Virus record (IMG/VR): IMGVR_UViG_3300034168_000130 | Coordinates: 1 to 60,949 of that record | DNA: 60,949 bases | Origin: a virus | Taxonomy: Duplodnaviria > Caudoviricetes | Direction: 5' to 3' (one strand) | In this document: positions 1 to 47,000 of the stretch, piece after piece | Layout of the letters: each line of letters begins with the position of its first letter | Numbering within the stretch: position 1 is the first letter of the stretch | Notes under the pieces: generated by a model | The model's input: the letters and a program-made list of their open reading frames with translations, nothing else | The model's database searches: none | Told to the model about the DNA's origin: nothing | Made by a program: the position numbers and the translations under genes

Positions 1-226
1 TCAAAGATTTACGAGGGGGTACTCCCAACAGTCCGAAGAGCCCGACCCCCGTCGCCCCTGCGAGGCGTTGCCCTGCGCCGAGAACCAAAGGGCAACCGAG
101 GGGGGGGGGGGGGAGGGCAACCCTTGAAAAATCTTCGCATCTTCTCCACTTTATTTGATCTCGTCAGTATTACTTTGTCAGTTCGACTGACGGCTACTAG
201 CCTACCCTACGGGGTGGAGGACATAG
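1..226. repeat. Left direct terminal repeat
   Basis: Matches 60723-60949 except the G run (G14 here, G15 in the right copy); size typical of T7-like DTRs. Confidence 0.85.
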
Positions 227-273
227 CCCCTCTTTGACAACCCAACTCTATCGCTCTCACCTCGAGGGCTATG

Positions 274-336
274 GTAGCCAACTGGTCTACCCCGCAAGGG
301 GGAGTAATGAACTAGCGTGTGCCATAGTACTCGGGA
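274..336 (+). other. Long imperfect hairpin capped by CCC-GCAA-GGG (possible RNase III site or 5' leader)
   Basis: ctcgag/ctcggg, gctatggt/gccatagt, ctggt/actag pair with G-U wobbles; GNRA tetraloop. Confidence 0.5.
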
Positions 337-556
337 CTTTGAAGGCTATAAGGATCACGCCTCTATCGGAACTAGTGTCATTAGTTCCACTAACGATCAA
401 ATTAATCCCTCCCCTATTGCTTGCTTTTTTCGGTGAATTTTCCATTAAAGCACTCATTAGGGATAGGGAAGATATGCCCCTAACAAGGACATATCTTCCC
501 GTACCCTTCGGATGTTCCGTAGGGTATCGGGGCAACATATTCTTAAGGAGAATACT

Positions 557-883
557 ATGTCTAAGTTTTATAACGGTAATTTGATCAATCGGGCATTCAT
601 TGAATCTCAACTCTTACTTGCCACTGGCACTAAGGATGCTAATGGTAAGTTGTTGATTGAGGGTACTGGAGATATCACTATCCCCTTCATTGCCTACCAT
701 ATTCTCGTGGATTGTGACAAAGTGAAAACGCATAAGATGTATTGTGCAATGATCAAGGCTACTGGACGATCACTTTGCACAAAGACATTACGAGACGGTA
801 TGAATGCTATGCTTGCGGAAAACGGATATGCGTTCGCACCAAAGACCGATAAGTTGGATGCACTACTTGCCGAGATTGACTAA
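557..883 (+). CDS. Hypothetical early protein (first gene)
   Basis: ORF 512..883; start moved to ATG 557 after RBS TAAGGAG, whose context (ttcttaaggagaatac) recurs before 2964. Confidence 0.75.
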   Translation: MSKFYNGNLINRAFIESQLLLATGTKDANGKLLIEGTGDITIPFIAYHILVDCDKVKTHKMYCAMIKATGRSLCTKTLRDGMNAMLAENGYAFAPKTDKLDALLAEID

Positions 884-898
884 GTATCAATGGCAGTT

Positions 899-974
899 GG
901 GGATACCGTAGCACTCCTACGGTATCCCCTAGGGTTCACCCTAATAAGTGAGCCCTAGGGGATATCAATGTCCC
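899..974 (+). promoter_or_regulatory. Triple overlapping hairpin leader, copy A
   Basis: ggggataccgtag/ctacggtatcccc; cccctagggttcac-CCTAATAA-gtgagccctagggg; gggatat-caa-tgtccc; same architecture at 2855-2928. Confidence 0.6.
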
Positions 975-1020
975 AATGGTAATGTGAGTAATGTCCCTAT
1001 ACGGGCAGAAAGGTATCATT

Positions 1021-1281
1021 ATGGTTAAGTTCACTATGAAACAGATATTTGGTGATTGTCGTAGTCCAAAGGATTACGCTAGTCGAGTAGCCAAGTTTGC
1101 CAAGGATCGTAGTATCCCTACTGAAACAGTAATCGAGGCTATACGCCAAGGGTACGGGGTAACAGTCGATAGGGAGATGTGTGCGAAGTATGCCCACGTC
1201 AATGCTATTGAATCGTGGCAGACCGATTCACGTACTCATAGTACCGTCCTAGTCTTTGAGACTCTTATGGAGAATCTATGA
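1021..1281 (+). CDS. Hypothetical early protein
   Basis: ORF 991..1281; start at ATG 1021 after AAAGG; ATGA overlap with next gene. Confidence 0.7.
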   Translation: MVKFTMKQIFGDCRSPKDYASRVAKFAKDRSIPTETVIEAIRQGYGVTVDREMCAKYAHVNAIESWQTDSRTHSTVLVFETLMENL

Positions 1282-1568
1282 AACATCCTATGCCACCATT
1301 TGCCGATATGTACACTCCCCAATTGAAAAGGGCAGTAAGGAACTATGCCGATGGTAATACTACGGTAGACGAATTCATTGATGCGGTATTTGAGGCAGCC
1401 ACGAAAGGCGAAGTACACGAACTATTCTACGGTCTAATCAATCGTAGGCACGATTATCGTACTGAATGTGAGATGGCTATGAAGACATCTTGCACTAAGA
1501 AGATGACCAAAGCGTATGCCAATATGATGGTATATGTTCGAGTCCTTACTACTGAGGATACACTATGA
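1278..1568 (+). CDS. Hypothetical early protein
   Basis: GGAG RBS; ATGA overlaps at both ends. Confidence 0.7.
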   Translation: MKHPMPPFADMYTPQLKRAVRNYADGNTTVDEFIDAVFEAATKGEVHELFYGLINRRHDYRTECEMAMKTSCTKKMTKAYANMMVYVRVLTTEDTL

Positions 1569-1840
1569 GTCCCGAACTACTACGACTACATCAATCCTAT
1601 GAGAATGGTATCATTCACTGCGATGAGTTCGCAGAGGGTATCAAGAGTATCAAGGGATTGCATCCGCAGTATGAACCTATCGTCCTAGTACTTGAGTGGT
1701 ATCGTGAAGAATGCCGTAGTGTGGTATTCAACTTCGATAAGTTCGAGTGGGATGTTCGACAACTGAACACTATGGCAGGGTACTATGCACGGCTCAAGGA
1801 TGCCGTGGATAGTGTGGTCTACCCCAATGTAGTCCACTAG
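1565..1840 (+). CDS. Hypothetical early protein, possibly a distant paralog of 1278..1568
   Basis: GAGG RBS, ATGA overlap; both carry Y-x-x-G-x-x-x-x-DEF (YADGNTTVDEF / YENGIIHCDEF). Confidence 0.7.
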   Translation: MSPELLRLHQSYENGIIHCDEFAEGIKSIKGLHPQYEPIVLVLEWYREECRSVVFNFDKFEWDVRQLNTMAGYYARLKDAVDSVVYPNVVH

Positions 1841-1918
1841 TAATGAAACACACCTTCAGTATGAAGGTTCTTGGGATACCTTGCGTATCCCATAGGGATG
1901 CCCCTATCCTCACAATAG

Positions 1919-2278
1919 GGGTATCCCATAGGCTACACTGTAGAGGTGTACCCTATGGGATATATAGAGTGGGAGATATTACTAGATCAATGACGATTGA
2001 TCCCCTACTCTACAATATTCAATGGTGTATACCCTAGATGATTATGTTATAACTAATCTATAAACTAGGGTATCCCATAGGTTACACTGTAGAGGTGTAC
2101 CCTATGGGATATGTGGCACAGGGCAATAAATACCCTCCTACGATATCTCAATGTACTTATGTAGTGCTTACCTACACTAGTACCAGATAGAGATAAGCGT
2201 GGTATACCCTAGATGACATTAGTCTATAAAACTAGGGTATCCCATAGGCTACACTATAGTGGTGTACCCTATGGGATA
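1919..2278 (+). repeat. Array of three 44-nt palindromic repeats with unique structured spacers
   Basis: GGGTATCCCATAGGYTACACTRTAGWGGTGTACCCTATGGGATA at 1919-1962, 2068-2111, 2235-2278 (periods 149, 167); copies 2 and 3 also share the upstream GTATACCCTAGATGA...CTATAAA(A)CTAGGG hairpin. Confidence 0.9.
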
Positions 2279-2310
2279 ATGGTATCCACGATACACTTCT
2301 CCTAAAGAGT

Positions 2311-2836
2311 CTAGGTAATAGGTAACCTAGTAAAACACCTATACTGTAATTCCCTTCGGGGTATATACCTTCGGGTCTATATGTCAGTACACTACCATAT
2401 CCCTTGACTGGGGTATGGTGGCTTCTCTACTACATTAGGTAGTGGTAGTGCACTAGCACTGCCTATTCCCTAGTAGACGGTTATTTCCTATACCTTCTCC
2501 GTAAAAGTAAGGTTCATTAGTCACGGGAGTTTCATACTATCATCCTAACATAGGTGTGATGAAAGTATGTATGAGTGAGTTGGTACTATGCCCACCTATA
2601 GCAGGGTAAGTACTAGGGTTGAACACTGCCCTTAATCAGTGGATGGTATGCTGATGCCATATAAAGGTGTAGTAATACACCCCGCATAAAGAGATCGGTG
2701 CAGTTGCCTATCGCTGTATAAGTATAGGTATGTATCTCTACTACAGTACGCTCCGTTAGGATGGGCTGTAGCATATACGTTGGTAGGTTACACTACTTGT
2801 CGTCCACCTACGCAATACCCTAACGGGGGTATTGTG
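2311..2836 (+). ncRNA. Candidate large structured ncRNA, family unknown
   Basis: No ORF of 60 aa or more; two cUUCGg loops, GUAA and UAAC tetraloop hairpins, two H-type pseudoknots, G-U-containing stems, long-range cctatac/gtatagg pairing. Confidence 0.55.
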
Positions 2837-2854
2837 GGCTTGGATATGTAGCAC

Positions 2855-2928
2855 GGATACCCTCGGTGTACACTGAGGGTATTCCCTTCTGCTCTCCTAA
2901 TAGAGGGCGCAAGGGGATAACAATATCC
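2855..2928 (+). promoter_or_regulatory. Triple overlapping hairpin leader, copy B
   Basis: ggataccctcggtg/cactgagggtattcc; tcccttctgctctc-CTAATA-gagggcgcaagggg; ggata-acaa-tatcc; stems differ from copy A, loop conserved. Confidence 0.6.
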
Positions 2929-2963
2929 TATGTACGGTAGAAAAAATTCTTAAGGAGAATACA

Positions 2964-3194
2964 ATGGACTATCCAAACTATGGCGGGTACGAGGCTGAGT
3001 ACGGTATGAATCTGAAGGACACACTGATTGAGAATCAGGATGCAATCATCAAGGTACAAACGAGTACTATTGAAGTGCAGGATAAGCAGATACGATTATA
3101 CAAGGCACTCGAGGAAAGTAATATGACTATCATTGCATCCCTGAGGATTCAGATCCTTGCACTCACTACGGCAGTAGGGGAGTCACGACGATGA
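2964..3194 (+). CDS. Hypothetical coiled-coil protein
   Basis: Strong RBS TAAGGAG; heptad-like I/Q pattern. Confidence 0.75.
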   Translation: MDYPNYGGYEAEYGMNLKDTLIENQDAIIKVQTSTIEVQDKQIRLYKALEESNMTIIASLRIQILALTTAVGESRR

Positions 3195-3457
3195 ATATCA
3201 ACTTTAGTATCTATGATGCCCTAGAGGACATCACAAAGCAGTACACTGGAGTATTGACTACCCTTAGTGCGGAGACATACCGTGCAGATACCGCTGAAGG
3301 TGAAGCCTTCGCTACTAACCTGCGCCTAGTCGAAGTCCTCGCTGAACTCGAGTCTATCAAGGCATTATACCGTGGCTCACCATCCGATCTATCGGACTAT
3401 AAGAAGATGACCAATGAAGAATGCAGTAACATAGTTAAGGAGATAAGTAACCTATGA
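3191..3457 (+). CDS. Hypothetical protein
   Basis: GGGGAG RBS; ATGA overlaps. Confidence 0.7.
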   Translation: MNINFSIYDALEDITKQYTGVLTTLSAETYRADTAEGEAFATNLRLVEVLAELESIKALYRGSPSDLSDYKKMTNEECSNIVKEISNL

Positions 3458-4176
3458 ATAAACTAAAAACATCTAACGATAGGAAGGTAACTAATATGCC
3501 CACTGCTAATGGTAAGCAGTCCGCTATAAAGAATACCTTTGGTCTACCTAGTGGTATAGCATACTCTTGTAGGGGTGAGACTCCTACTTGTAAGAGAGTG
3601 TGTTATGCTGGTAGACTAGAGAAGGTATACCCTAGTGTAAGGGCATTGCTGTTACATAACTGGCTGTTACTAAAGGATGCCGACTATAATACTATGGTCT
3701 CATTGTTAGATGATATGATACAGTCATTCAATAAGGACTGTGCCAAGTACCCTAGTGTAGATAAGATATTCCGTATACACTGGGATGGTGACTTCTTTAG
3801 TGACGAGTATACTACAGCGTGGGCTACAGTAATACAGCGTCATCCTAGTATACAGTTCTGGGTATATACTAGAGTAGAATCTAGTGCCAGAATATTGCAA
3901 GGTATTGATAACCTATCCTTGTACTACTCTACTGATAGAGATAATGAATCTATTGGTATCAGTCTACGAGCAATAGGTATTAAACTTGCATACCTAGAGG
4001 ATACCTTTGAGACTGGTGGTATCCGACTAAAGGTTATCACTGGTAAGGTAGGTGCTAAATGTCCAGAGAATATGGGTGTTATACCCTTAATCTCTACCAT
4101 AGGCAGTGCCTGTGGGGTATGTAGATTGTGTGTTGATAACAAGACAGACATAAGATTCTCTATATCGAAAGGATAA
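3454..4176 (+). CDS. GP88-like (radical-SAM-related Fe-S) phage protein
   Basis: FGLPSG..SC-x6-C-x3-CYA, FRIHWDGDF, WVYTR, C-terminal C..CGVCRLC. Confidence 0.75.
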   Translation: MNKLKTSNDRKVTNMPTANGKQSAIKNTFGLPSGIAYSCRGETPTCKRVCYAGRLEKVYPSVRALLLHNWLLLKDADYNTMVSLLDDMIQSFNKDCAKYPSVDKIFRIHWDGDFFSDEYTTAWATVIQRHPSIQFWVYTRVESSARILQGIDNLSLYYSTDRDNESIGISLRAIGIKLAYLEDTFETGGIRLKVITGKVGAKCPENMGVIPLISTIGSACGVCRLCVDNKTDIRFSISKG

Positions 4177-4230
4177 TGTGTATACATTTGTACACATTTC
4201 TATACATATCCATACTGATATGTATATTAA

Positions 4231-4304
4231 ATCCCTATAGCGCAACAGGATAGCGCAACAGATTTCTAATCTGTAGGTTGTAGGTTCAAGTCCTACTAGG
4301 GATG
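4231..4304 (+). tRNA. tRNA-Arg(TCT)
   Basis: atcccta/tagggat acceptor, gcgc D stem, acaga-TTTCTAA-tctgt anticodon arm, gtagg-TTCAAGT-cctac T arm; CCA not encoded. Confidence 0.9.
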
Positions 4305-4307
4305 TTT

Positions 4308-4382
4308 GGGGTAGTGCCTGATGTTGGTAAAAGGTGTCGGCATATAACCGACCTCACGTGGGTTCGATTCCTACCTACCCTA
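4308..4382 (+). tRNA. tRNA-Ile(TAT), atypical (A33)
   Basis: ggggtag/ctaccct acceptor, gtcgg-CATATAA-ccgac anticodon arm, gtggg-TTCGATT-cctac T arm. Confidence 0.75.
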
Positions 4383-4424
4383 CTATTGTGTATCGTTGTT
4401 CGGTAACTTTTATAGGAGAATCAA

Positions 4425-4649
4425 ATGTATCTAGTACACGACAAGCATAATGTAATAGCATCAGGCTTCCCTGATAAACACCTAGCAGAGGTGTATGCAC
4501 ACTTGTATATCAATCTCTTCAGTGATGAGGGTGTATCTGTTAGCAGAGATGTTAATCAATTGAATCGTAATGGTAGCCTACAGTATGTAGGTCAACAGAT
4601 ATGTCCATTCACTGGAGAGTCAACAAGTAAACTAAAGGAGACAGTATGA
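4425..4649 (+). CDS. Hypothetical protein
   Basis: AGGAG RBS; overlaps next gene. Confidence 0.7.
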   Translation: MYLVHDKHNVIASGFPDKHLAEVYAHLYINLFSDEGVSVSRDVNQLNRNGSLQYVGQQICPFTGESTSKLKETV

Positions 4650-4852
4650 ATACATTCAAAGATGATCAGTTTGTAAGTGATATTGTGCGTCAAACAAGAC
4701 AGTCCACGGTACTGTCCCAGTTGTTACACAACAGGATACCTATGATAGATGCAGTAAAGACTGCATATGAAACAGAACAAGACATCAATAAAAGAGTTGC
4801 ATATGGTAACCTATTGGTGTGGCTACGCTTACTGAAAGAGGAGACCAAGTAA
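4646..4852 (+). CDS. Hypothetical protein
   Basis: AAGGAG RBS; TAATG coupling to next gene. Confidence 0.7.
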   Translation: MNTFKDDQFVSDIVRQTRQSTVLSQLLHNRIPMIDAVKTAYETEQDINKRVAYGNLLVWLRLLKEETK

Positions 4853-5214
4853 TGGGATTAGATCAATATATAAATGTAAACGGGTCTAACATTGCATCTC
4901 GTCCTGCTACTGGTGATGATGCTATTACTAATAACCCCATAGAGATATGGTATGGTCGTAAAGAATACGACATCCATAACTGGATGCATAAAAACTTTAT
5001 CTATAAGGGTGGTGATGTTAGTGCACAGTTTAACTGTGAGTCTTATGTACTGTTAGATGAAAAAGATATGGATGATCTAATAGAAGATATAAAAACATCA
5101 GATGGGTTTGAAGATACAGATAAAGACTTACTATCTGAGTACTTGGATATGTGTTATAAGGTAAAGAGGTTGGTTGAGCGTGGTAACATAGTATACTACA
5201 CCTCGTGGTGGTAG
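4852..5214 (+). CDS. Conserved phage hypothetical protein (MGLDQY...YYTSWW type)
   Basis: Start moved to ATG 4852; MGLD-x-Y, Y-x-RK..IHNW, FNCE and terminal SWW pattern recurrent in phages. Confidence 0.75.
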   Translation: MGLDQYINVNGSNIASRPATGDDAITNNPIEIWYGRKEYDIHNWMHKNFIYKGGDVSAQFNCESYVLLDEKDMDDLIEDIKTSDGFEDTDKDLLSEYLDMCYKVKRLVERGNIVYYTSWW

Positions 5215-5259
5215 TAGTGTTTTAATTCAGTACTAAAGTTCATATATAAAAGGAATATA

Positions 5260-5847
5260 ATGACACAAATAAACATTGATCTCCCTTATGCACGGTATGC
5301 TGGGGACTTTAGAACCAAGCATCTATTAGACCTAGTGCTAGAGGCTCATAGGCTATTGGGTATGAATAATAACTGTCTCAGTACAGGTGCATTCATCAAC
5401 TGCTACAAGGCAACAGGCAGTATGCCTAGTGCTATAGCCTCTGCTGTGCTAACTCTTAATGGGTTACACGCCCCTATACAACAGGCTAGAGATGTATATG
5501 AGTACTATGATCAGGAGATGATTAACAGGGATATACTGGAAGGTCGAAAGATAGCAGGGTTTGGTAATGCTTTCCATAAGGACGGCATTGATCCAGTATG
5601 GTTATCAGTACAACAGTATATGATCAGTGAATTCTTTGATGAGTATCGTAGACTGATGGACTTACAGGATTGGGTAAACTATACTCGTAAACGATATAAA
5701 CCTGATGCTAAAGATATCTTTATTAACCCTGCTATGTGGACGGCAGTGGTATGTGGTATGTATAACTTCGACAGAGGTAGCGAACTATCCCTGTTTATAA
5801 TGGCAAGACTGCCCACTTGGATACAGAAAGGATTATGTAATGATTGA
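5260..5847 (+). CDS. Citrate synthase / citryl-CoA lyase-fold protein with degenerate active site
   Basis: AIASAVLTLNGLHAP (cf. GPLHGGA), GRKIAGFGNAFHKDGIDP (cf. IPGFGHRVYK..DPR), LFIMARLPTW (cf. LFAIARxxGW). Confidence 0.7.
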   Translation: MTQINIDLPYARYAGDFRTKHLLDLVLEAHRLLGMNNNCLSTGAFINCYKATGSMPSAIASAVLTLNGLHAPIQQARDVYEYYDQEMINRDILEGRKIAGFGNAFHKDGIDPVWLSVQQYMISEFFDEYRRLMDLQDWVNYTRKRYKPDAKDIFINPAMWTAVVCGMYNFDRGSELSLFIMARLPTWIQKGLCND

Positions 5848-6049
5848 AAGCGATGAGAGAATAGATAAGATTGTAGCACAGATGCTGTGCTTTATTGAGA
5901 GTCAAGGCTATGCCTTGGTAGCCATACACCCTATTAACTTGAGAAATGTAGATGTTGATCAAGTTAACGAGGCTATGGAGAATGCTGGTACATATGACAT
6001 AGTTCTACAAGAACAAGAAAGGATTAAGAATGGTACTAAAGAATCTTAA
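5840..6049 (+). CDS. Hypothetical protein
   Basis: AAAGGA RBS; overlaps neighbours. Confidence 0.65.
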   Translation: MIESDERIDKIVAQMLCFIESQGYALVAIHPINLRNVDVDQVNEAMENAGTYDIVLQEQERIKNGTKES

Positions 6050-6626
6050 GAAATATGTAGATGATCTAATCTGTGAACACGGGGAAGAGTATCCTTGTGT
6101 CAGTTGGACACGGCTAGTAGAGTGGACATCCATCAGTGATAACATTATGGATAACTGTAGTACACTAGAAGAACTACTGGCAGAGATGATCCAGTACTGG
6201 GAAGAAGATAAAGCCCAGCAACTTCTGAGTAAAGAAGTAGCATCAGGTAAGTATGACAACACTACTGATGTGTTGCCCCCGAAAGTTGGGGCTAAAGAGA
6301 ATACCTCTTTCGTTATACGTACCTTTATCACTAACAAAGCAGGGGTTAGGAGAGACATACAACTAATCTCTACTCCTCACTATGATGAGAAGCACTCTTG
6401 TATGGTGTGTACATACCTTGTGCAAGGTGTCTCCGAGTATACTATAGTATCTGAAGACACTAACAGTATTACTACAGGCTTTGACTTTGCTGATGGTCCT
6501 ATGTATACTGTGGGTGGTGAGTTTAGTAATGGAGTATGGGTTGTTGGTAATATCCTAGAGTTGAAATCGTTTCAACCTAATGTTAAAGGTAGTGTATGTT
6601 GCCACTTAGTGGTAGAAAGTAAATGA
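6030..6626 (+). CDS. Hypothetical protein
   Basis: 198-aa ORF with AAGGA RBS; contains an internal phage promoter. Confidence 0.65.
   Translation: MVLKNLKKYVDDLICEHGEEYPCVSWTRLVEWTSISDNIMDNCSTLEELLAEMIQYWEEDKAQQLLSKEVASGKYDNTTDVLPPKVGAKENTSFVIRTFITNKAGVRRDIQLISTPHYDEKHSCMVCTYLVQGVSEYTIVSEDTNSITTGFDFADGPMYTVGGEFSNGVWVVGNILELKSFQPNVKGSVCCHLVVESK
6280..6297 (+). promoter_or_regulatory. Phage RNAP promoter
   Basis: CGAAAGTTGGGGCTAAAG; core shared with 11875, 19323, 60173. Confidence 0.65.
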
Positions 6627-6970
6627 TTATGCATCCTATTACAATTGAATTAGAAGATATCATATATAATAACGTCAGTTATGATGTAACTGTAGAGGTT
6701 GAGGGTCATACATCTGAGAATGATGGAGACTCTAAGCAACTGTATCCAGAGATTGACAGTATAGTTGTTACAAGAGTACAATCTATTACTGAAGATGGTC
6801 CATTCGGTAATGAGATTATGCTTGAGCATCGGTCTGATATAGATGCTGATCTCTATACAGCACTGTTGTATATTGTGTCTAATGATTTCAGTATATGTGA
6901 AACATTACTTGAACACATTGCTGAATATGATAGAGATATGGCAGAGTATTCACCTGATAATGAAGAGTGA
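6623..6970 (+). CDS. Hypothetical acidic protein
   Basis: 115-aa, very D/E-rich ORF. Confidence 0.7.
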   Translation: MIMHPITIELEDIIYNNVSYDVTVEVEGHTSENDGDSKQLYPEIDSIVVTRVQSITEDGPFGNEIMLEHRSDIDADLYTALLYIVSNDFSICETLLEHIAEYDRDMAEYSPDNEE

Positions 6971-6977
6971 TAACACA

Positions 6978-7050
6978 GGACTAGTAGACCAATGGCAGAG
7001 TCAATAGATTTAAAATCTATACAGTGTGGGTTCGAGTCCCACCTAGTCTA
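6978..7050 (+). tRNA. tRNA-Leu(TAA), short variable loop
   Basis: ggactag/ctagtct acceptor, D loop aatggcaga, ataga-TTTAAAA-tctat anticodon arm, gtggg-TTCGAGT-cccac T arm. Confidence 0.85.
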
Positions 7051-7116
7051 TTCACCAACTAGTAATGCACGATAAACCTTGTTGGTTTACTGTACATTCT
7101 ATAAGGAGATTCGGAT

Positions 7117-8127
7117 ATGGCGCATGAAATTACAAGTACAGATGGTGCTGTGTTCTATAAGGAACAAGCATGGCATGGGTTGGGTTATACTGTAGAGGAA
7201 GCAATGACTCCTATGGAAGCCTTGAAGATGGCTGGTTTGGATTGGAGGGTTCATAAGACAGTAGGTATTAGGACGTGGGAATCAGATACAGAGGGTGAGT
7301 TTCCCCCTAGTTATTCAGATAAATTTTGCGCCATCCTACGGGATGACACGAATGATATCCTCAGTGTACAATCACCTGACTATCAGGTGGTACAGAACTA
7401 TGAAGTATTCGACTTAGCGTATGCACTAGGTGCTGATGTTAAGATCGAGTCTGCCTTGTCTTTACAAGGTGGTAAGAAGATCATCTGCCTAGTCAAGGGT
7501 GATACCTTTGCTCCCTCTAACAGTGGGAATGATTCTATCACACAGTACCTTGCCTTGCTGTCTTCACATGACGGTACTATTGCATTGAGTGGACTGCCAA
7601 CATCAGTACGAATTGTATGCATGAATACATTAAAGATGGCATTAGGTAGGGCTAAGAAGAATATGATTCGCTTTACCCATACAGGTAACATGGAGGATAA
7701 GAAGTCTCAGATGCGTCTTGCCTTAGAGCAGTATGCTAATACTGGTAAGTTCTTTAAGGAACAGGTTAACATCCTGTCAAATGCCTCCCTTAATACGGAA
7801 CAGATTCAGAAGTTCTTCCTCAGTGTATATGAGTTATTAGAATCACCTATCGTGGCTAACCCACAGACAGAGAAGGAGTATAAGAACTATCTTAATGCTA
7901 CTGTCTTAGTATCTAAGTGGAGTGCTGGGTTTGATGAAGAGCGTAAGGAATTGAATGCCCCTGCTAGTGCATGGATGGCAGTCAATGCTGTTACTAGAGA
8001 ACTGCAACATCGTATCCCTGTTAAGGGACGTAAGACTGGATGGGAGAACAGAGCATACAACAACCTAATGGGATCTAATCAAGATGATTCTATTGCGGTT
8101 GCTAATCATGCTCTTGCTTGGTGTTGA
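7117..8127 (+). CDS. DUF932/DUF945 family protein
   Basis: MAHEI..AWHGLG, AGLDW, YQVVQN, SSHDGT, VRIVCMNTL, HT. Confidence 0.85.
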   Translation: MAHEITSTDGAVFYKEQAWHGLGYTVEEAMTPMEALKMAGLDWRVHKTVGIRTWESDTEGEFPPSYSDKFCAILRDDTNDILSVQSPDYQVVQNYEVFDLAYALGADVKIESALSLQGGKKIICLVKGDTFAPSNSGNDSITQYLALLSSHDGTIALSGLPTSVRIVCMNTLKMALGRAKKNMIRFTHTGNMEDKKSQMRLALEQYANTGKFFKEQVNILSNASLNTEQIQKFFLSVYELLESPIVANPQTEKEYKNYLNATVLVSKWSAGFDEERKELNAPASAWMAVNAVTRELQHRIPVKGRKTGWENRAYNNLMGSNQDDSIAVANHALAWC

Positions 8128-8154
8128 TAGTGCGGTAATTAATGCGTCGAATAC

Positions 8155-8184
8155 GGGGCATCCATAGTATACTATGGATGCCCC
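8155..8184. promoter_or_regulatory. Perfect 30-bp palindrome upstream of the RNAP gene
   Basis: GGGGCATCCATAGTA|TACTATGGATGCCCC. Confidence 0.6.
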
Positions 8185-8213
8185 TTAGCATCCATAATAT
8201 ACGGAGTTACACT

Positions 8214-10682
8214 ATGAGTAAATGGAATCAATTATCTATTGAAGAAAAAGATAAGCGTACTACATTACAAGTACTTGCTGAGGAAGAGATGCTTGCCATC
8301 TCTGACCGTAAGTATTGGCAGGAGTATGATGTAGCCCCTGATGAGGGGTATCCTGAACAATCTCTGTTAGATACCTGTGTTATTAATCTTACTCCATTGT
8401 TTCAAGAGTGGATAGATTACTCTGCTAAGAACACTAAGACTCCTGCTTGGGCACTACCCTTGTTTGGTGTGGGTGCAGGTAAGATGGCTGACATCACGGT
8501 ACGATGTCTTATATTGGAATGGTTTAATTCTAGTATGTGGGATAAGAAGACAGAGTTTGAAACTGTTGCACTGCCTACGGCACAGCACATAGCACACGCT
8601 ATTGCTGATATGGTCATCAACATTGTATCCTATCAACAGACTAAACAATTCTTTAGAGAAGACTGGCTAAAGCAGTCACACTATCAGAAGAACTGGTCAC
8701 CCAAAAGGTGTAAAGCATTTGTAGAAAAGATGGGTGGTCTTAACAAGACATCCTTTACTCGTAAGAATAGAGAAGACTTTGGTCATCATATGCTCAGGAT
8801 TGTAGAGAAGTCTAATGTTATTGTATTGTCTAACAATCGTAGGCATACAGGTAAACGTTGGTGTGACCGTGTTGTTGTGTCCTTTACTGATGTAGTATTA
8901 CAAGAGTTAAACAAGCGACATACTGATATGATTGCTATGGCTGCACTGTTGTATAGACCTATGCTAGTGCCACCTGTACCACATACCACTACATCATCTG
9001 GTGGTAATCTATTGGCGTATGTTCGTAAGCCTGTGGTTCAAAGGTTTAAAGATATTATGTGGGATGAGAAGGTAATCCAAAAGGGATCTACTCCATCTGA
9101 TATGGTCATTGATGGGTTGAATGCAATGATGCATACTGAGTGGACTGTTAATGGACGGGTGTATGAGGTTATGAATACACTGTTTAGAAACAATACTAGA
9201 GCATGTAACTTACCCGCCTATGAGTTCGCTGCCTTTGATTACTCTATGCCTTACCCTAAAGATGGGACTAAAGAAGAGAAAGCAATGTGGTGTGGTCACA
9301 AACAAGACTCGTACTCGTCTTGGTATAAAGAAGAGAGAGCACGTGGACGTATGCTAGTACGGCTCAAGTTGGCTAAAGATATGATGAGACATGGGTTCTT
9401 CTATCAACTGTATACCTGTGACTTTAGAGGTAGAGCAAATGCATCGTGTGATTTACTATCACCACAATCATCTGACTTTGATAGAGGATTAGTATGCTTT
9501 GCCAATGATGCTAAGCAAACTAACAGTGGTATATACTGGCTTAAGGTACACTTAGCAAACTTATTTGATCACGATAAGGATACATTCACCAATAGAATTA
9601 AATGGGTAGATGATAACATTGAGATGTTTAAACGTATCAATGAAGATCCTTATGCTAACCTAAGTTTATGGATGTCTGATAAGAAGAAGAAGAACCCATC
9701 CTTCCAACGGTTGGCTGCTATCTTTGACTTACTCAGGACAGATGGTCTTACTTCAGTACCTGTACAGATGGATGGTAGTTGTAATGGTGTTCAACATTGG
9801 GCTGCCCTTATGAAGGCAGATGAGTTGGCTGATATGGTTAACTTAACTACGACACCAGTACCACAAGACCTATATCAGTATGTTGCAGACTTAGTAACTG
9901 AACTGATGATAGAAGATCAAGAGAATGATACTAAGTCTGGGCTATGGGCAAAACAATTCTTAATACAATGGAATAATTATATCCATCGTAATGTTGTTAA
10001 GAGGGCTGTAATGACAGACCCATATGGTGTCACTCTATTTGGTATTCGACGGTACTGTAAGAGTGAAGGTCATCTTGATTGGGTTACTAAAGATAAGATT
10101 GCTGGAGCTGTAATGGAACTAGCATCCTTCATTGACAAAGCCCTTAAGGGAACTTTAGTAGAACCCAACAAGGGTAAGGTATGGCTTAAGGTTGTATCGG
10201 ATATGTCTTCTGAGTTATCTAAGAACATGGAATGGACTACGCCGTGTGGTTTCCATGTAGTACATCAATACTATGAGATCATATCAAGACGATCTGTTAC
10301 TAAGTTATTTAACATGAAAGAGTTATACTTTGGGTATCCCGACAGGGATTCTATTGATCCAAGACAAGTAAACCTAGCAATCAGTCCTAATTATATACAC
10401 TCATTAGATGCAAGTCATATGTGGTGTACGATGAGAAGGATGACGTTAGTTGGTATCTCCTCATTCAGTATGGTGCATGACAGTTATGGATGTCATGCCC
10501 CCTATGTATCTCTTATGAGAGAGTTTACTAAAGAAGAGTTCCATACTATGCATAAACTACCTTTATTAGAGATGCTTAGGAAAGAATTAGAATCTATTCT
10601 CAAGGTTCCGTTACCTGAGATACCACAACAAGGTGAGTTTAACATTAACAAAGTGTTAGAAGCGGAGTACTTATTCCAATGA
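8214..10682 (+). CDS. T7-like single-subunit DNA-directed RNA polymerase
   Basis: DFRGR, DGSCNGVQH (motif A), R-x3-K-x7-YG (RNVVKRAVMTDPYG, motif B), PNYIHSLDA, HDSY (motif C); start moved to ATG 8214 after GGAG. Confidence 0.97.
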   Translation: MSKWNQLSIEEKDKRTTLQVLAEEEMLAISDRKYWQEYDVAPDEGYPEQSLLDTCVINLTPLFQEWIDYSAKNTKTPAWALPLFGVGAGKMADITVRCLILEWFNSSMWDKKTEFETVALPTAQHIAHAIADMVINIVSYQQTKQFFREDWLKQSHYQKNWSPKRCKAFVEKMGGLNKTSFTRKNREDFGHHMLRIVEKSNVIVLSNNRRHTGKRWCDRVVVSFTDVVLQELNKRHTDMIAMAALLYRPMLVPPVPHTTTSSGGNLLAYVRKPVVQRFKDIMWDEKVIQKGSTPSDMVIDGLNAMMHTEWTVNGRVYEVMNTLFRNNTRACNLPAYEFAAFDYSMPYPKDGTKEEKAMWCGHKQDSYSSWYKEERARGRMLVRLKLAKDMMRHGFFYQLYTCDFRGRANASCDLLSPQSSDFDRGLVCFANDAKQTNSGIYWLKVHLANLFDHDKDTFTNRIKWVDDNIEMFKRINEDPYANLSLWMSDKKKKNPSFQRLAAIFDLLRTDGLTSVPVQMDGSCNGVQHWAALMKADELADMVNLTTTPVPQDLYQYVADLVTELMIEDQENDTKSGLWAKQFLIQWNNYIHRNVVKRAVMTDPYGVTLFGIRRYCKSEGHLDWVTKDKIAGAVMELASFIDKALKGTLVEPNKGKVWLKVVSDMSSELSKNMEWTTPCGFHVVHQYYEIISRRSVTKLFNMKELYFGYPDRDSIDPRQVNLAISPNYIHSLDASHMWCTMRRMTLVGISSFSMVHDSYGCHAPYVSLMREFTKEEFHTMHKLPLLEMLRKELESILKVPLPEIPQQGEFNINKVLEAEYLFQ

Positions 10683-36974: not shown

Positions 36975-38387
36975 ATGACATATACAAACACACCTATAGT
37001 AGTCAGTCAACAAACCACTGGTTATACTTCTGGAAACATTCCATACTCCAGTATTGTTTTAATTCCAAGTATTCCACACGCAGCTCAACTAGAGGTTGAA
37101 AGAATTTTTACACAAGATAGAGATGGAAGTACAGCAACTCTATTGGCTTTCTTAGCAGACCCAGCTGTTACTACTGCTCAAAAGAAAGCTGTGTTTCTTA
37201 TCCCCATCAGTCGTTGTACCTTGGATTCTATTACAAGTAACATCACAGCAATCGACTTACCTGCTTCAGGAGCTACTATTTATAATTATGTAGTAATAAC
37301 CCCAACCCCTACTACTTATACTATAAAGGTACCAGCTTTAAGCAGCTCTACAGTTACAGTACGTCGTAAAACCGTATCAAATGAACCATTTGTAAACTGG
37401 CAAGCAGGAAGTCGTCTTACCAGTAAACAGTTAAACTTAGCAACAACACAATCTTTATATCTTATACAAGAAGCTTTAGAAAAGATTGGTACATCTGTAA
37501 CAATTGAAACAACACAGATTACAGCTGCCAGTCTATCAGATAATTCTGTAACCAATTCTGCTATTGCAAGCAATGCTGTGACAACTGCTAAGATTGCAGA
37601 CAATGCTGTTACTACAGCTAAGATTGCAGACAATGCTATTACAACAGCTAAAATTATTGATGTAAATGTTACGACAGCTAAGCTTGCAGATAATTCTGTA
37701 ACCTCAGCAAAGATTGCCGATGCTAATGTTACAACTGCTAAGATTGCCGATGCTAATGTTACAACTGTTAAGATTGCAGATAGTAGTGTTACAACTGCTA
37801 AGATTGCCGACAGTGCTGTTACATCTGCTAAAATTTTAGATGGTACTATTGTAAATGCAGCTATAAGTGCAACTGCTGGCATTGTTGATACAAAGCTATC
37901 TACTATTTCTACTGCTGGTAAAGTAGCTAATAGTGCAACTACAGCTGTGACTGCAGCTACTGCTGATACTATTGTGTTGCGAGGAACTAGTGGAGCTGTT
38001 ACAACAGGTCTTTTAACCGCATCATCAATTTCAACTTCAGGAAATCTTTTATTTAACAGTGGGTTTGGGTCTGCTGCGGTTGGTTATGGATGTCGTGCGT
38101 GGGTAAATTTTAATGGTACAGGAACGATTGCTATAAAAGCAAGTGGTAATGTAAGTTCAATTGGTGATAATGGTGCGGGTGATTACACAGTAAATTTTAC
38201 CACATCTATGTCCGATGCTAATTATTGTATAGCAACTTCTGGTGCTCGCACTGCTGCCGAAATTCAAGTAATTGGTGTTGATTACACAAACTCTACAAAA
38301 ACGGCATCGGCTGTTCGGCTAGGCGCAAAGTTAATAGGACTTGCTAGATCAGATTCTGCCGAATGTAATGTAGCTATCTTCCGTTAA
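36975..38387 (+). CDS. Tail fibre with T7 gp17-like anchoring segment
   Basis: VRRKT..FVNWQAGSRLTSKQLN..QSLYLIQE; VTTAKIAD repeats; C-terminal CRAWVNFNG..NVSSI.D.G.GDY.VNF. Confidence 0.85.
   Translation: MTYTNTPIVVSQQTTGYTSGNIPYSSIVLIPSIPHAAQLEVERIFTQDRDGSTATLLAFLADPAVTTAQKKAVFLIPISRCTLDSITSNITAIDLPASGATIYNYVVITPTPTTYTIKVPALSSSTVTVRRKTVSNEPFVNWQAGSRLTSKQLNLATTQSLYLIQEALEKIGTSVTIETTQITAASLSDNSVTNSAIASNAVTTAKIADNAVTTAKIADNAITTAKIIDVNVTTAKLADNSVTSAKIADANVTTAKIADANVTTVKIADSSVTTAKIADSAVTSAKILDGTIVNAAISATAGIVDTKLSTISTAGKVANSATTAVTAATADTIVLRGTSGAVTTGLLTASSISTSGNLLFNSGFGSAAVGYGCRAWVNFNGTGTIAIKASGNVSSIGDNGAGDYTVNFTTSMSDANYCIATSGARTAAEIQVIGVDYTNSTKTASAVRLGAKLIGLARSDSAECNVAIFR
37531..37845 (+). repeat. 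About ten 30-nt coding repeats (VTTAKIADNA)
   Basis: Repeated gttac(a/t)actgctaagattgc(a/c)ga units. Confidence 0.85.
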
Positions 38388-42978: not shown

Positions 42979-44040
42979 ATGTCACAACTAAACAATAACT
43001 TTTACAATGAACTGCAGAATATTGCTTCTGCATCTATGCCAGTTACAACTACAAACACAAACCCAACAAACATTGAAGAAGGTTTATCAAAACAAGCTAC
43101 AGCTAGACTAAAAGAATCAACTGATCTTGCAATGCAAATGTATCCATCAGAAGCAGGAGAAAGATTTGATTTCTGGAAGAAACAAAACAACCCAGAAAGT
43201 ATGGATACAGATACAAAGAATGTTTATTGGAAGACATATGAACAGATGCATCCTGAAGGTATTGTTGGGGCTAAAAGAGATTTCGTAGATGTTACTAAGA
43301 GAGAGTTAGATGTTATTGGTAGTAATGTTGGTAAGGAGTATTTCCTAAGGGATAGGTTGGTGAATACACCAGCATGGGCACGTAAAGAATTAGATCCTAT
43401 TTTAGGTGAACTTAGTGCAAACGTTGCTAACTCAAACTACTCTAAATCACAACAAGTCTATATGAAAGATTTAGATCTCAGGGCTTCTCACTTTGCTGCT
43501 AAGGCTCAGTTAGATCCTGATGTGTCTATAGATACCCATACAGAAGATGCTGTTAAATTGGAACAACTAAATCTTTTAGAATTGGGTACAGTTGTTCAAG
43601 GTCGTATAGGTGTTTATAATGAAGATGGTCAATTCTACCCAGCCTTTGGTATTAAAGATAGAACTGAGATTTTTAAAAAAGATATTGACGCATCTCCTTC
43701 TTTGGAAGAACAAAGTGTTGTTCGTGGTATTGCTCCTAACATTATCCGAAGAGCTGTTGAAGGAAATCTTGCGTTAAACCGAAACAAGATTCAAGCACAA
43801 GAACGCACAGGAGAAGCAGTCGCTACTGAGTATTTAACAACTGGTGCTTTTGGTATTGATAAATGGAATACAGCTTTTGCTATGTTACCTAACGTTACTA
43901 ATTATGATAAACTAAAACAAGGTATTCAAGGAGAGATTTCTTCTGGCAGAATAACCTCTGAGAAAGATTTAATAAGAACAATCTATCAATCTATGGTCAC
44001 TTATGGTCATCTATTTGAAAAAAATAAGGAACAGAAATAA
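42979..44040 (+). CDS. Putative internal virion protein
   Basis: 353-aa helical ORF within the ejection block; TAATG-coupled. Confidence 0.6.
   Translation: MSQLNNNFYNELQNIASASMPVTTTNTNPTNIEEGLSKQATARLKESTDLAMQMYPSEAGERFDFWKKQNNPESMDTDTKNVYWKTYEQMHPEGIVGAKRDFVDVTKRELDVIGSNVGKEYFLRDRLVNTPAWARKELDPILGELSANVANSNYSKSQQVYMKDLDLRASHFAAKAQLDPDVSIDTHTEDAVKLEQLNLLELGTVVQGRIGVYNEDGQFYPAFGIKDRTEIFKKDIDASPSLEEQSVVRGIAPNIIRRAVEGNLALNRNKIQAQERTGEAVATEYLTTGAFGIDKWNTAFAMLPNVTNYDKLKQGIQGEISSGRITSEKDLIRTIYQSMVTYGHLFEKNKEQK
43259..43276 (+). promoter_or_regulatory. Possible phage promoter variant upstream of the giant virion genes
   Basis: GTATTGTTGGGGCTAAAA; exact core. Confidence 0.35.
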
Positions 44041-47000
44041 TGCCTCCACTTCAGCCTCTTCAACAAACAATCTTTGAACAAGGTCCACAATCATCTGTCG
44101 GTATGGGAGCATCTCCTATTGTAGACTATAGGGAAGATCCAACCGTAATAGTAAACCCTATTAACCCAGCTCTTGCTTTAGATAATGGAGTTGCGTGGTA
44201 TGCCTTAGGTGCTGAAGCTTTTAATGTTGCAGGTAAGTTGTATACGGAAACCTTGGATAATGTTATTGAAGGTAAAGATGCATCTATCCAAGCTATTGGT
44301 TATGATCTACAGGACGAGACTGATGATTTGTATCAGAACTTTCAAATAAGACTCCAGCAAGCAGAGATTGCAGGTACTGACTTGACCCAAGAGGATCAAG
44401 TGATACTGAATAAGGGATATGAAGATCTCAAGGTAAAGTATGACGAACAGGCTAGAGGTGTTCTTGGTGATGAAGATTATGCTCGGTTCACTCAGGGCAA
44501 TCCTGACCTCAGTGATATTGGCAGCAAGTATCGTCGCCTAGCCCTACAGACCCGTAAAAGTTACTATGATATTGAGAACAATATCACAAAGATCATGTAT
44601 AATATGGCAGAAGCTCAACAAAATTTAATTGAGAAGAACGAAAACAGGGCTAGGTTTGCTGCTGGCAACGGACCAACGGGCAGCAGACAACCTTCCCTGA
44701 CAAGGGAAGAGATGGCAAATATTCCCTATAACCCAATGATCAATGGTATGTACCCTATCACAACAAACGGTGGCAAGTCTATACTGCCTATGGGTAAGGA
44801 TGGTACTGCGTTTGGTCGAGATGCTGCAGGGCAGATCTTAAAGGATGAATTTGGAAAGCCTGTGTTAGTTGAAGGTAAAGATAAAGAATTATACATCAAC
44901 AAAGAAGCAGACCTAGCAGTCTTAGGCGAAGACCATTTACGCACTATTTCCCGAGTAGAAGCTGAGGGTGGTAACCAGACCAGTGCTACAGGTAAGAACA
45001 TCCTTCCTGCAGCCCAGAGGGCATACAAAGATCTTATCACAGATAGACTCTCTGATAGTGATGCATTGATAGCAATGAACCAATTGCGCTATGTTGATGT
45101 TCGGGCAATTGCTGCATTACAAAATGCTGATGGCAGTCCAGCTTTCTCAGCAGACCAAGTTATGCGCCTCAGTGTAATGAGCAGCATGTCTCGTAGTTCT
45201 GCTACGTTAGAGATGCTAAAAAAGTTTCAAGTTAATGACTTTAACAATCCTAAGGCATTAGAGATTGCCTATAAGTATCTAAACAGTGTAAAACGTGGTG
45301 CTAAGGGGTTGGTAATGGAAGGTCGTAATGATTTCTTAGGTAATGAAGAAACCATCTTCGGTACAGGTCAAGACCAAACAGCTTTGGCAACCATCACTAA
45401 TGCAGTTGTTCGCTTTGCAGCTCAATATTCTGGGGTAAACCTTGATACTTACACTACGGATGAAAACAATAAGGATGTCAGAGTAGCTGGCGAAGGAACT
45501 AGTAATGAATCTATTGTTGATTTCTTGTACAGGAATCCTCAGATGAAGATTATGATTGTTCGTGCTTACCTTGCTGTCATGTCGAACCCAACTATTACCC
45601 GAGGTGGTACAGAAGCTACAGACAAACTACGCAGTGAAGAGATCAATGAGTTTATGAAAACTTCTTTTGTTCCTGCTGAGTTTGAAGCAGCTGACCTGAG
45701 TGTTATTGATGGTGTGGTCATTAGCTCTAAGTCTTTGAAGTCAGTTGATAGATCAGTTGAAGGCTTGAATAGCATCATTAATTCTGCTAAGCTTACTGAT
45801 CTCCAGAAAAAAGAATACATGGATCTTAATAAGGGAGAGAAGAGTAAAATTATAGCTCAGGCTGAACTACGTGGAACCAACGGCTGCAAAGTTCTTCATA
45901 CAGATACAGAAGAACAGGTTATTGCTAAACAAATTACTTACATAGGACTGTGGAATCCTTCCGCTGACAAGCAAGTCATTCGTGCTGTGCTTGGCGGTGT
46001 TGGTCAAACCAGCGTAACCCGCAGAGGAACTACTATAGCTAAGAACGGTCTCAGTGATGGTGAGTTAGCTCGTGCTGCGTTCGCAGCTAATCCAGAATTC
46101 TACGGACCTATGGGTCTTGTACCTAACACTAAAGACGCAGCTGCCTTGGTTCGTGCTATGCCTATAGAGGATCAAGTAAAACTTGCTGGTGAGGCTTGGC
46201 AGATGATCCCTCCAGCTGAGTACTGGGAGATGGAACTAGATATCTCAGACATATCTCAACTAGAAGGAGACAATTCAGGCATCCCTGTGTCTTTTAAAGC
46301 AATTTCTGCTCAGACTGTTGATGGAACTAACGTGAACCTTGTTGATTATGTGACCTCTAGGGATAACCTAGATTCAAAAGGTGGCTGGATGCCCCGTCAA
46401 CGTGACAACAATAACACCCCTATAGTTCGCATTGGTCAACGTATCCTGAATGATAAGAATCAACTTGTTGAAAACACAGAACGAAACCTAAACTTAAACA
46501 TACAAGACATAATTGAAGCACGGGCTGAAGGTTCCTTTAGTAACCGTGAGACTGTGCTTAGGGGAGCGGGATTTCCTAGTCGAACAGACACAGGAGCTAC
46601 TGATGATGTTCGGGCTATTGAGGCAATCAAGATTAGTAAGATCCAGCAGGATAGAATTAACTTTGCAAAGTTATTTGAAACCAGTGGGATTGATAATCCA
46701 GAAGTTACTTCAGTTGTTGATTTTATGAACCAACTAGATCTTCCAAAAACCAGAGCAGGTCTAGCAGCCATACGAAAACTTGATCCTACGTTCAAAGATG
46801 ATGCTGCAGGTACCAGTATCCTTGATACCATTACTACAGATTACCGACGAGCAACCCAGCCTAACACAGGTGAGTTACGTACTGGTGCGGGTGATCCTGA
46901 TGGTAAGGGTAACTATGCTGATGCTTTATTTACCCCAGCCATGATGGATGCAGTTATGGTAAAGGCACAGAAGCTTGGTCTTAAAACCGTCAGTGATCAT

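Follow-up and report, generated by a model that had tools for sequence, protein, structure and literature searches.

In bacteriophage T7 the early region enters the cell first and is transcribed by the host polymerase, and the RNase III sites of that region are named R0.3 to R1.3. Repetitive extragenic palindromes (REP) and bacterial interspersed mosaic elements (BIME) are intergenic palindromes of approximately 40 nt that occur in many near-identical copies and stabilise the mRNA upstream of them. Five RNase III signals lie in the T7 early precursor of approximately 7000 nt, and cleavage leaves RNA-stabilising hairpins at the 3' ends, according to the passages on T7 in Nicholson (2013, PMC3867540). 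For T4-type phages, Arbiol et al. (PMC2839356) describe promoter-early-stem-loop elements (PeSLs), which are stem-loop cassettes placed between the stop codon and the Shine-Dalgarno (SD) sequence of small early ORFan genes, and whose copies recombine to shuffle, delete and insert modules. In the Cluster K mycobacteriophages, the extended start-associated sequence (ESAS) consists of 17-bp imperfect inverted repeats with a short spacer, located 5' of some non-structural gene starts, conserved across different gene families and of a function unknown to its authors; the start-associated sequence (SAS), a 13-mer GGGATAGGAGCCC, lies 3-7 bp before the start codon with the 17-bp inverted repeat just upstream (PMC3203893). 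Here we describe a repeated hairpin, termed H, and a second hairpin, termed hp1, directly 5' of it, in a phage DNA stretch of 60,949 bases (IMG/VR virus record IMGVR_UViG_3300034168_000130, the whole of which is referred to as the window). The locus had been singled out from the letters of the sequence, in what we call the original prediction, as an array of RNA repeats and spacers at 1852-2278. The anatomy of the hp1-H cassette, its conservation with covariation, its fixed position before open reading frames (ORFs), its coincidence with mosaic joints and the abundance of a neighbouring RNA were observed directly. With about even confidence, we read H as an intercistronic RNA processing or stabilising hairpin of a host-transcribed early operon, comparable to the RNase III sites of T7.

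Three near-identical 44-mers, as previously reported, were found at 1919-1962, 2068-2111 and 2235-2278. They vary only at repeat positions 15 (C/T/C), 22 (G/G/A) and 26 (A/A/T), none of which falls within the 11-bp outer stem TATCCCATAGG/CCTATGGGATA, and their start-to-start spacing is 149 and 167 nt, leaving spacers of 105 and 123 nt. The palindrome had been given as 11 bp; this stem is real, but its true length is greater, with 17-nt arms (1922-1938 with 1946-1962 in the first copy, and likewise in the others) that are 94% complementary around a 7-nt loop, for a stem of 16 pairs and one fixed mismatch, C.C or U.C. The 13-mer GGTATCCCATAGG occurred 13 times in the window at two or fewer mismatches, compared with 0.97 expected, and since none of 100 shuffles reached 13, chance is excluded as the source of the repeats. 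Exact-pattern scans brought up five contigs with the hairpin, one from IMG/VR (L011, extended as L021) and four from metagenomes; one of these, L012, is at 99.9% identity the phage of the window itself and does not enter any count. The mosaic relatives contributed eleven copies of H: three in L011, three in L013, one in L014 and four in L015. A covariance model built from 15 copies and searched in the whole 61-kb window recovered four strong copies, the three of the array at 72-75 bits and a divergent one at 920-967 with approximately 56 bits, in addition to one degenerate copy at 2877-2922 (19.2 bits, E 0.006), and gave no other match at E <0.1 within the 61 kb.

In the 15 copies of H (13 distinct), none of the 16 pairs is lost (208 of 208 cells), and compensatory two-sided changes occur at three of the pairs. 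Three further changes are one-sided, all of them giving U.G on the + strand where the other strand would have A.C. Only one of 500 column shuffles of the alignment equalled the observed pairing, and controls in which the columns were slid paired at 20-50%. When 15 distinct hp1-H cassettes were folded, 37 G.U pairs were counted on the + strand versus 13 on the - strand, and the + strand was the more stable in 12 of the 15. The covariation is thus consistent with a role for H as RNA on the + strand. Plain tandem duplication in relatives, with no conservation of the stem, had been named as an outcome that would refute the original prediction; the divergent copies instead keep all 16 pairs.

The hairpin that had been noted before each repeat, overlapping it and varying in its inner stem (gatta/taatc versus gac/gtc), is present as described and corresponds to hp1, which was found directly 5' of H in all 15 canonical or divergent copies folded, with unrelated inner stems. 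The base of hp1 is GGATACC/GGTATCC, above which the upper stem is free to vary among copies in sequence and length, and its last 5-6 bases (TATCC[C]) double as the first bases of H, so that the two hairpins compete for them. On the 3' side of H, a leader TATCY is able to pair with the GGATA at the end of the hairpin, forming a mini-hairpin, in 9 of 16 copies. Two states are possible, either the full H or the full hp1 with the inner part of H and the mini-hairpin, and in 13 of the 16 copies they lie within approximately 2 kcal/mol of each other. Four GGGATA/TATCCC hexamers in alternating orientation are found around every copy. A cloverleaf or closing stem joining hp1, H and the mini-hairpin was considered and dropped, as the predicted closing helices are not conserved between copies.

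The full cassette reads, in order, upstream stop codon, hp1, the 41-nt H, a conserved leader of approximately 40 nt, SD sequence and ATG. The SD and ATG lie 40-56 nt 3' of H in 10 of the 13 copies examined for them (all 16 H-type hairpins minus the three array copies of the window, which were inspected separately), or 10 of the 16 overall. The ORFs that follow these ten copies are 56-121 aa long and have at least six unrelated N-termini, and the canonical copies of this type carry the conserved leader ACWMTATCYYAATG… after H. The remaining six of the 16, namely the three array copies and one each in L011, L013 and L015, lead into non-coding sequence, which is either one of the two spacers (S1 and S2) or an ORF-free structured region (NC). 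A leader peptide beginning at the conserved CAATG after H was also considered, and was dropped because the reading frames are not conserved. The features of the locus in the window are as follows:

459-507, + strand: irregular pre-cistron hairpin with 21-nt arms, 81% complementary, and a 7-nt loop, approximately 50 nt before the first early ORF (ATG 557); of the same pre-cistron class as H, with a different sequence.
899-929, + strand: hp1', GGGGATACCGTAG/CTACGGTATCCCC, its 3' arm overlapping H'.
923-964, + strand: H', the divergent copy of H, TATCCCCTAGGGTTCAC/GTGAGCCCTAGGGGATA; 56.5 bits, 56 nt before ATG 1021, with all pairs kept through compensatory changes.
1873-1927, + strand: pre-hairpins of copy 1, consisting of GGGATAC/GTATCCC at 1873-1891 and hp1 at 1895-1927, the latter overlapping H1.
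1922-1962, + strand: H1, a stem of 17 positions, one of them mismatched, around a 7-nt loop; 74.5 bits.
1963-2024, + strand: S1 (spacer 1), a 48-nt irregular hairpin followed by ACAATATTCAATGG; the same in L011.
2025-2075, + strand: hp1 of copy 2, overlapping H2, inner stem gatta/taatc.
2071-2111, + strand: H2; 74.6 bits.
2112-2200, + strand: S2 (spacer 2), a bulged hairpin; L015 matches its first 87 nt at 96.6% identity, and L013 retains its core.
2201-2242, + strand: hp1 of copy 3, overlapping H3, inner stem gac/gtc.
2238-2278, + strand: H3; 72.3 bits.
2279-2854, + strand: NC, the ORF-free structured region, with RNA contigs on 2395-2732 and a core at 2521-2649 in common with L011.
2855-2884, + strand: hp1'', GGATACCCTCGGTG/CACTGAGGGTATTCC; the same hp1 precedes a canonical H in L011 and L014.
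2880-2919, + strand: H'', a degenerate H, whose 17-position stem has 9 pairs, a C.C mismatch and 7 pairs, three of them U.G; 44 nt before ATG 2964. Its inner sequence is unlike that of the other copies and its stem architecture is alike.
2920-2966, + strand: leader ACAATATCC..., the SD AAGGAG and the ATG of the next ORF cluster; a GGATA-acaa-TATCC mini-hairpin is possible with the 3' end of H''.

The limits of 1852-2278 given in the original prediction do contain the array, but the same hairpin type is found outside them, at 923-964 and 2880-2919, and the ORF-free stretch continues to 2963. This stretch of 926 nt (2038-2963) has no + strand ORF of at least 45 aa, which is unusual for this genome. 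A 64-aa ORF at 1843-2037, running through H1 and S1, was judged not to be a gene, having no SD and lying in a context that L011 does not share. The minimum-free-energy fold of 1841-2300 (-182.7 kcal/mol, z -8.2 on the + strand) contains both of the spacer structures that had been drawn, the hairpin tagagtggg/cctactcta enclosing gatcaat/attgatc in S1 and the long bulged hairpin at approximately 2138-2202 in S2. A gatatt/aatatt pseudoknot can also be drawn in S1; the only other copy of this spacer, in L011, is identical, so that no covariation is available for it. The spacers had been called unrelated, and their bodies are indeed unique, but both end in the same 15-mer GTATACCCTAGATGA (2027 and 2202), which is the 5' side of the next hp1. 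Both also hold leader-like remnants, ACAATATTCAATGG at the end of S1, which resembles the leader found after ORF-type copies of H, and ATATCTCAATG in S2. Such remnants would be expected of decayed ORF cassettes, although they do not prove that origin. The tandem array looks like three hp1-H cassettes whose ORFs are missing. The dedicated repeat-spacer array with payloads that had been proposed, CRISPR-like in layout, is not supported, as 10 of the 16 H-type hairpins precede ordinary small ORFs. Nor were swapped or diversifying spacers found in relatives, which carry the same S1 and S2 pieces, or ORFs, in other orders.

A comparison of the flanks of the eleven copies in relatives with those of the window showed that H is where similarity between relatives is lost. 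The order in L011 runs ORF, H, ORF, NC, hp1'', H, S1, H, leader, ORF, so that the H-S1-H unit lies after NC, not before it, and occupies the place that the degenerate H'' has in the window. This unit is 99.5% identical between the two phages over 193 nt, whereas the downstream gene block is 86.5% identical over 2434 nt, and the difference fits a non-coding unit that is constrained or was recently exchanged. In L013 the upstream flank of window copy 1 is joined directly to the S2-type downstream flank of copy 2, as if S1 and one repeat had been deleted. A 71-aa ORF separates H from the beginning of NC in both L013 and L015; the window has no ORF at this place. Comparison of these sequences shows H to be a recombination joint, where related phages swap, lose and reorder early modules. 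On the - strand of L013 (1770-1800) and of L015 (1095-1130), the S2-type spacer ends in a small hairpin, TTTTT and then TATAAT, just 5' of hp1-H; this could be a terminator-promoter pair and is without counterpart in the window.

The cassette was otherwise found in a narrow set of sequences. Exact-pattern scans of IMG/VR with H, a relaxed H and three NC motifs returned L011/L021 as the only related contig, and two further pattern matches, L016 and L017, were chance hits on checking. Using nhmmer, window 227-3460 matched only L011/L021, L013, L014 and L015 among 96 other loci, a set that excludes L012 and L018-L020. A search for relatives through a GP88-like protein (80 loci) returned mostly unrelated phages. 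BLASTN analysis of window 1-4200 against 50,697 phage records gave no match, and scans of 185,579 prokaryote species' genomes (one genome each) gave no match to H and none to an NC motif, and so point neither to a host nor to a family of REP elements in cells. The 11-mer arms of H were found in the searchable literature only as unrelated primers. As had been stated, the repeats match no known RNA family: at the gathering score, Rfam recognised three tRNAs in the whole window and nothing else, and permissive scans of 1-4400 and 1841-2963 (E up to 10) gave nothing meaningful, including with the CRISPR and ToxI models. The covariance model likewise found no H in the RNA polymerase (RNAP) relatives L001-L004 and L008 (49-79% identity). 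A more distant one, L004 (49% identity), has its own small repeated hairpin with a ribosome site (AGCCTCTTGATTGAGGCAGAAAGGTAGGTGTATATG) before early ORFs, at 623-657, 851-873 and 1088-1122, as does L008. Cassettes with a recurring hairpin before the cistron may therefore be widespread within this phage group.

The window spans an entire phage genome: approximately 226 nt are directly repeated at its two ends, and the virus record gives a completeness estimate of 90%. The + strand carries all 36 gene-like ORFs of at least 150 aa. A single-subunit RNAP gene lies at 8142-10682 (Pfam RNA_pol, E 5e-83), and its 846-aa product is only about 25-26% identical to any cultured-phage RNAP among the 50,697 phage records, which therefore places the phage in a deep, uncultured T7-like lineage. 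The Pfam scan also showed a head-tail connector and a T7-type capsid-like protein, and further genes encode a T7-type primase-helicase, a family A DNA polymerase and a class II ribonucleotide reductase. The phage DNA was near-complete in many lake-water metagenome runs. A 12-mer, GTTGGGGCTAWA, has seven sites, all on the + strand, at 6285, 11880, 17580, 19328, 26350, 43264 and 60178, of which the one at 26350 precedes the capsid gene and the one at 60178 follows the last gene; it is likely the promoter of the phage's own RNAP. Since its first site is at 6285, everything to the left of that position is taken as the early region. By analogy with T7, this region would enter first and be read by the host polymerase. 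All H-type hairpins of the window lie within 923-2919, upstream of both the RNAP gene and the first GTTGGGGCTAWA site. The earlier placement of the repeats in the first-injected end agrees with this, in that conserved RNA-type hairpins do lie in the early region, the early transcription of which is presumed.

RNA from the locus was evaluated from the contigs of four lake metatranscriptome runs, which possibly represent only two campaigns and in which contig depth is a poor measure. The runs held small shares of the first 8 kb, almost all of it at one place within 2395-2732. Contigs covered 2395-2612 (depth 165), 2439-2696 (109) and 2438-2698 (112), and in the fourth run (X19) a depth of approximately 1500 was reached at 2610 and 2657. 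Word depth was 100-1500 over 2395-2732 versus approximately 1-27 on flanking phage genes, placing NC RNA 10 to 50 times above them, and a contrast of that size among regions of a single phage points to RNA and not to carry-over of DNA. The high-depth bins reach 2937, the site of hp1''/H'', and depth falls from 31-360 in the bin 2671-2937 to 0-0.5 in the bin 2938-3204, a hint of a 3' end near hp1''/H''. At the other side, contigs of two runs abut sequencing-adapter letters at 2438/2439, the foot of a hairpin at 2436-2465, which hints weakly at a preferred end of the molecule. An arrangement of TTGACT, 18 nt, TACTAC and then G at 2439 (2404-2439), recognised by eye as weakly sigma-70-like, is positioned such that transcription would start at the beginning of the RNA contigs; L011 does not conserve it. 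The stretch 2390-2860 folds at -169.9 kcal/mol on the + strand (z -4.1) versus -134.5 on the - strand (z -1.8), with many hairpins built on TATCCC/GGGRTA-like arms. Its core at 2521-2649 is conserved in L011 with three compensatory pairs and three changes to U.G, a comparison of two sequences only.

In the best-supported reading, hp1-H is a general intercistronic element of the early RNA. The early operon is read from the + strand, presumably by the host polymerase, and we propose the hp1-H pair as the cut site for a host endonuclease of the RNase III type, specific for double strands. After cutting, the upstream product would end in a stable 3' hairpin and the downstream ribosome site would be free; the 41-mer, because the same sequence recurs, also acts as a homologous-recombination joint between related phages. 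The array at 1852-2278 is then a run of three cassettes with non-ORF payloads, namely the short hairpin RNAs S1 and S2 and, after copy 3, the long structured RNA. Processing was chosen as the mechanism on the model of T7, the reference phage for this type, whose early RNA is punctuated in the same manner. The position of H just ahead of ribosome sites, its fixed mismatch and the apparent end of the high-depth RNA near hp1''/H'' all fit with this. The suggestion that the repeats are processing handles is thus compatible with the data and offers the most economical mechanism, with cleavage itself presumed.

Several points weigh against this mechanism. The contig data showed neither cleavage nor an RNA end at any H, nor a transcript running across one, and none of the four runs had an RNA contig on 1870-2136, which is uninformative, since repeats break contigs and the filter drops records. 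The abundant RNA seems to start at approximately 2395-2439, which is 120-160 nt past H3, and not at H3. The stem of H has 17 positions, one of them mismatched, and so falls short of the two turns of double-stranded RNA, often interrupted by an internal loop, that are usual for substrates of Escherichia coli RNase III; stacking of hp1 on H would be needed for a longer quasi-continuous helix. Folding of the entire array region slightly favours the - strand (-189.9 versus -182.7 kcal/mol). The sequence of H is also conserved far beyond the needs of pairing, which suggests a sequence-specific partner or ongoing gene conversion. The copies from relatives are not independent, as L013 and L015 share near-identical cassettes and there are five related contigs in all. 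Finally, a host enzyme acting at H is presumed by analogy with T7.

The strongest RNA signal came from the long RNA downstream of the array and not from the spacers, and this bears on whether the locus is instead a dedicated source of non-coding RNA, in which S1, S2 and NC are payloads (for example decoys or sponges for a nuclease or a defence sensor) released at H handles. We consider this unlikely. The near-identity of H-S1-H beside adjacent genes that have diverged in L011, the retention of the S2 core in L013 and L015, the abundance of NC in the four RNA runs, its much better folding on the + strand with three compensatory pairs, and the unusual length of ORF-free sequence would all follow from it. 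However, H stands mostly before ORFs and so has no specificity for RNA payloads, S1 and S2 were not seen as discrete RNAs in any run (contigs only, none on 1870-2136), and recent exchange at the repeats would explain the H-S1-H identity equally. The remnants ATATCTCAATG and ACAATATTCAATGG are what decayed ORF cassettes would leave in the spacers, the covariation of NC is thin with only two full sequences, and there is no match to an Rfam family, ToxI or a CRISPR repeat model. A more specific form, in which 1841-2963 is an early non-coding RNA locus giving S1, S2 and an RNA of approximately 400-500 nt made largely of TATCCC/GGGRTA-type hairpins, the last accumulating far beyond phage mRNA levels and acting as a counter-defence decoy or sponge for a host nuclease that binds double-stranded RNA or for an RNA-sensing defence, is in our opinion doubtful. 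The same fall in depth near hp1''/H'' would be expected if H were a terminator or attenuator for the host polymerase and each cassette had its own host promoter, in the manner of PeSLs. The gene-order place (stop, stem-loop, SD, start) and the tie to mosaic joints are the same, and L013 and L015 have the weak hairpin, T-run and TATAAT described above just 5' of one hp1-H. Nevertheless, a sigma-70 consensus scan of 1-8200 found no site at any H and 11 sites in all compared with 24.4 in shuffles, with the reservation that the consensus may not be that of the host; no T-run follows H, where a terminator scan found nothing, and conserved -35 and -10 boxes could not be placed in the cassette by eye. 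Transcription cassettes of this kind therefore seem improbable here.

The excess of conservation (28 of 47 positions are invariant in the 15 copies), the hexamers in alternating orientation around every copy and the coincidence of mosaic joints with H could also be expected of an element acting as DNA, in which the 41-bp palindrome and the GGGATA/TATCCC hexamers would be protein sites or cruciforms for recombination, replication or genome entry. The one-sided stem changes, all of which are U.G on the + strand, and the excess of G.U on that strand argue otherwise, as do the inner stems of hp1, which covary freely as would RNA or single strands, and the fixed distance to start codons; we regard a role at the DNA level as quite improbable. 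Least probable of all is that H is a promoter of the phage type, read by the phage's own enzyme or by an injected virion polymerase like that of N4, for which hairpins serve as promoters. The inner stem and loop of H (…TACACTATAG…) presumably resemble the core of T7-group promoters, the distance from this core to the ATG, approximately 65 nt, is promoter-like, and three left-end hairpins together with a 3631-aa virion-type protein are, we assume, reminiscent of N4. But TAGGYTACACTRTAGWGG, at three or fewer mismatches, occurs only at the three array copies and at one two-mismatch site at 7181, and not before middle or late genes, while it is the different motif GTTGGGGCTAWA that shows the expected genome-wide, one-strand distribution. 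In sequence-level searches of Pfam, PHROGs, PDB sequences and the Atlas, the 3631-aa protein had no polymerase signal, and the scanned ORFs showed no second gene for a polymerase. The T7-type form of the promoter reading was rejected on the distribution of the motif.

Other features of the genome were observed in passing. The terminal repeat copies lie at 1-226 and 60723-60949, with a run of approximately 15 G at 100-114, near which they are slightly unlike (1-131 versus 60723-60853 are 94% identical with a one-base shift). The early region holds tRNA genes for Arg(TCT), Ile(TAT) and Leu(TAA) (4231-4383 and 6978-7050), all of which read A-ending codons, and an ORF at 5260-5847 (195 aa) with a below-threshold match to a citrate synthase C-terminal domain (E 1.8e-5, 24.4 bits versus a cut-off of 27). 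The 470-aa ORF at 36975-38387 contains ten head-to-tail repeats of 30 nt (10 aa) at 37517-37872 and is possibly a fibre-like protein. At the right end, the only family recognisable in the 3631-aa ORF (49241-60136) is an ART-PolyVal (ADP-ribosyltransferase) domain, at residues 1363-1541, and the 1733-aa ORF just before it (44040-49241) has a lysozyme domain at its end; these two proteins are probably ejected internal virion proteins.

In uncultured T7-like phages the early region turns over its genes rapidly and consists mostly of ORFans that lack annotation. The locus described here offers a concrete element, a near-invariant double-hairpin cassette that fronts early gene modules at the points where related phages differ. 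If NC is a discrete functional RNA, it adds a large phage non-coding RNA from an abundant freshwater virus, and if the counter-defence reading were true, this would be a new class of phage RNA without an Rfam relative.

In comparison with described systems, the likeness to repeats tied to small RNAs that are cut from a precursor, such as CRISPR, the solitary repeat units of RNA anti-CRISPRs and the ToxI repeats, would allow for phage decoys. Unlike CRISPR and RNA anti-CRISPRs, the 105- and 123-nt spacers are conserved in relatives, the palindrome has 17 positions and most copies stand before ORFs. No cas domains were found in the ORFs scanned and no Rfam CRISPR repeat matched, and the earlier observation that no cas, RT or Nop gene can be recognised agrees with our domain scans. 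Unlike ToxI, the repeats are separated by unique sequence and do not run head to tail; six neighbouring early ORFs had no PHROG match and no toxin gene was recognised among them. REP and BIME differ in that copies of H are found in a phage and in its first 3 kb only, with none in the 185,579 species' genomes, and no RAYT-like transposase was seen. The closest formal look-alike of H in print is ESAS (PMC3203893), which has a 17-position inverted repeat as well; its companion, the SAS 13-mer, begins with GGGATA, the last hexamer of H, which may be a coincidence. H lies 40-56 nt from the ATG, unlike ESAS, which adjoins it, and the SAS 13-mer GGGATAGGAGCCC is absent, with 6 matches at three mismatches versus 7.85 expected in the window and none in the early region. 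Like PeSLs, the cassette repeats a stem-loop that follows a stop codon and precedes the SD of a small early gene, and insertions, deletions and replacements between relatives are jointed at the copies, the pattern that Arbiol et al. describe for T4-type phages. It differs in that no sigma-70-type promoter was recognised in the cassette (consensus scan of 1-8200, with a consensus that may not be the host's), in that the phage is a T7-like podovirus, and in that the hairpin is longer and more conserved. As with the RNase III signals of T7, the hairpins are irregular and intercistronic, occur in several copies on an early polycistronic RNA and lie just 5' of ribosome sites. Unlike those signals, the copies of H are near-identical, always accompanied by a second, variable hairpin, have shorter stems and in some cases flank non-coding pieces, and cleavage here would be by analogy. 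We regard the hp1-H cassette as a variant of known phage intercistronic elements that no database family matches, and it links the RNase III punctuation of T7 early RNA with the PeSL-mediated shuffling of modules in T4-type phages.

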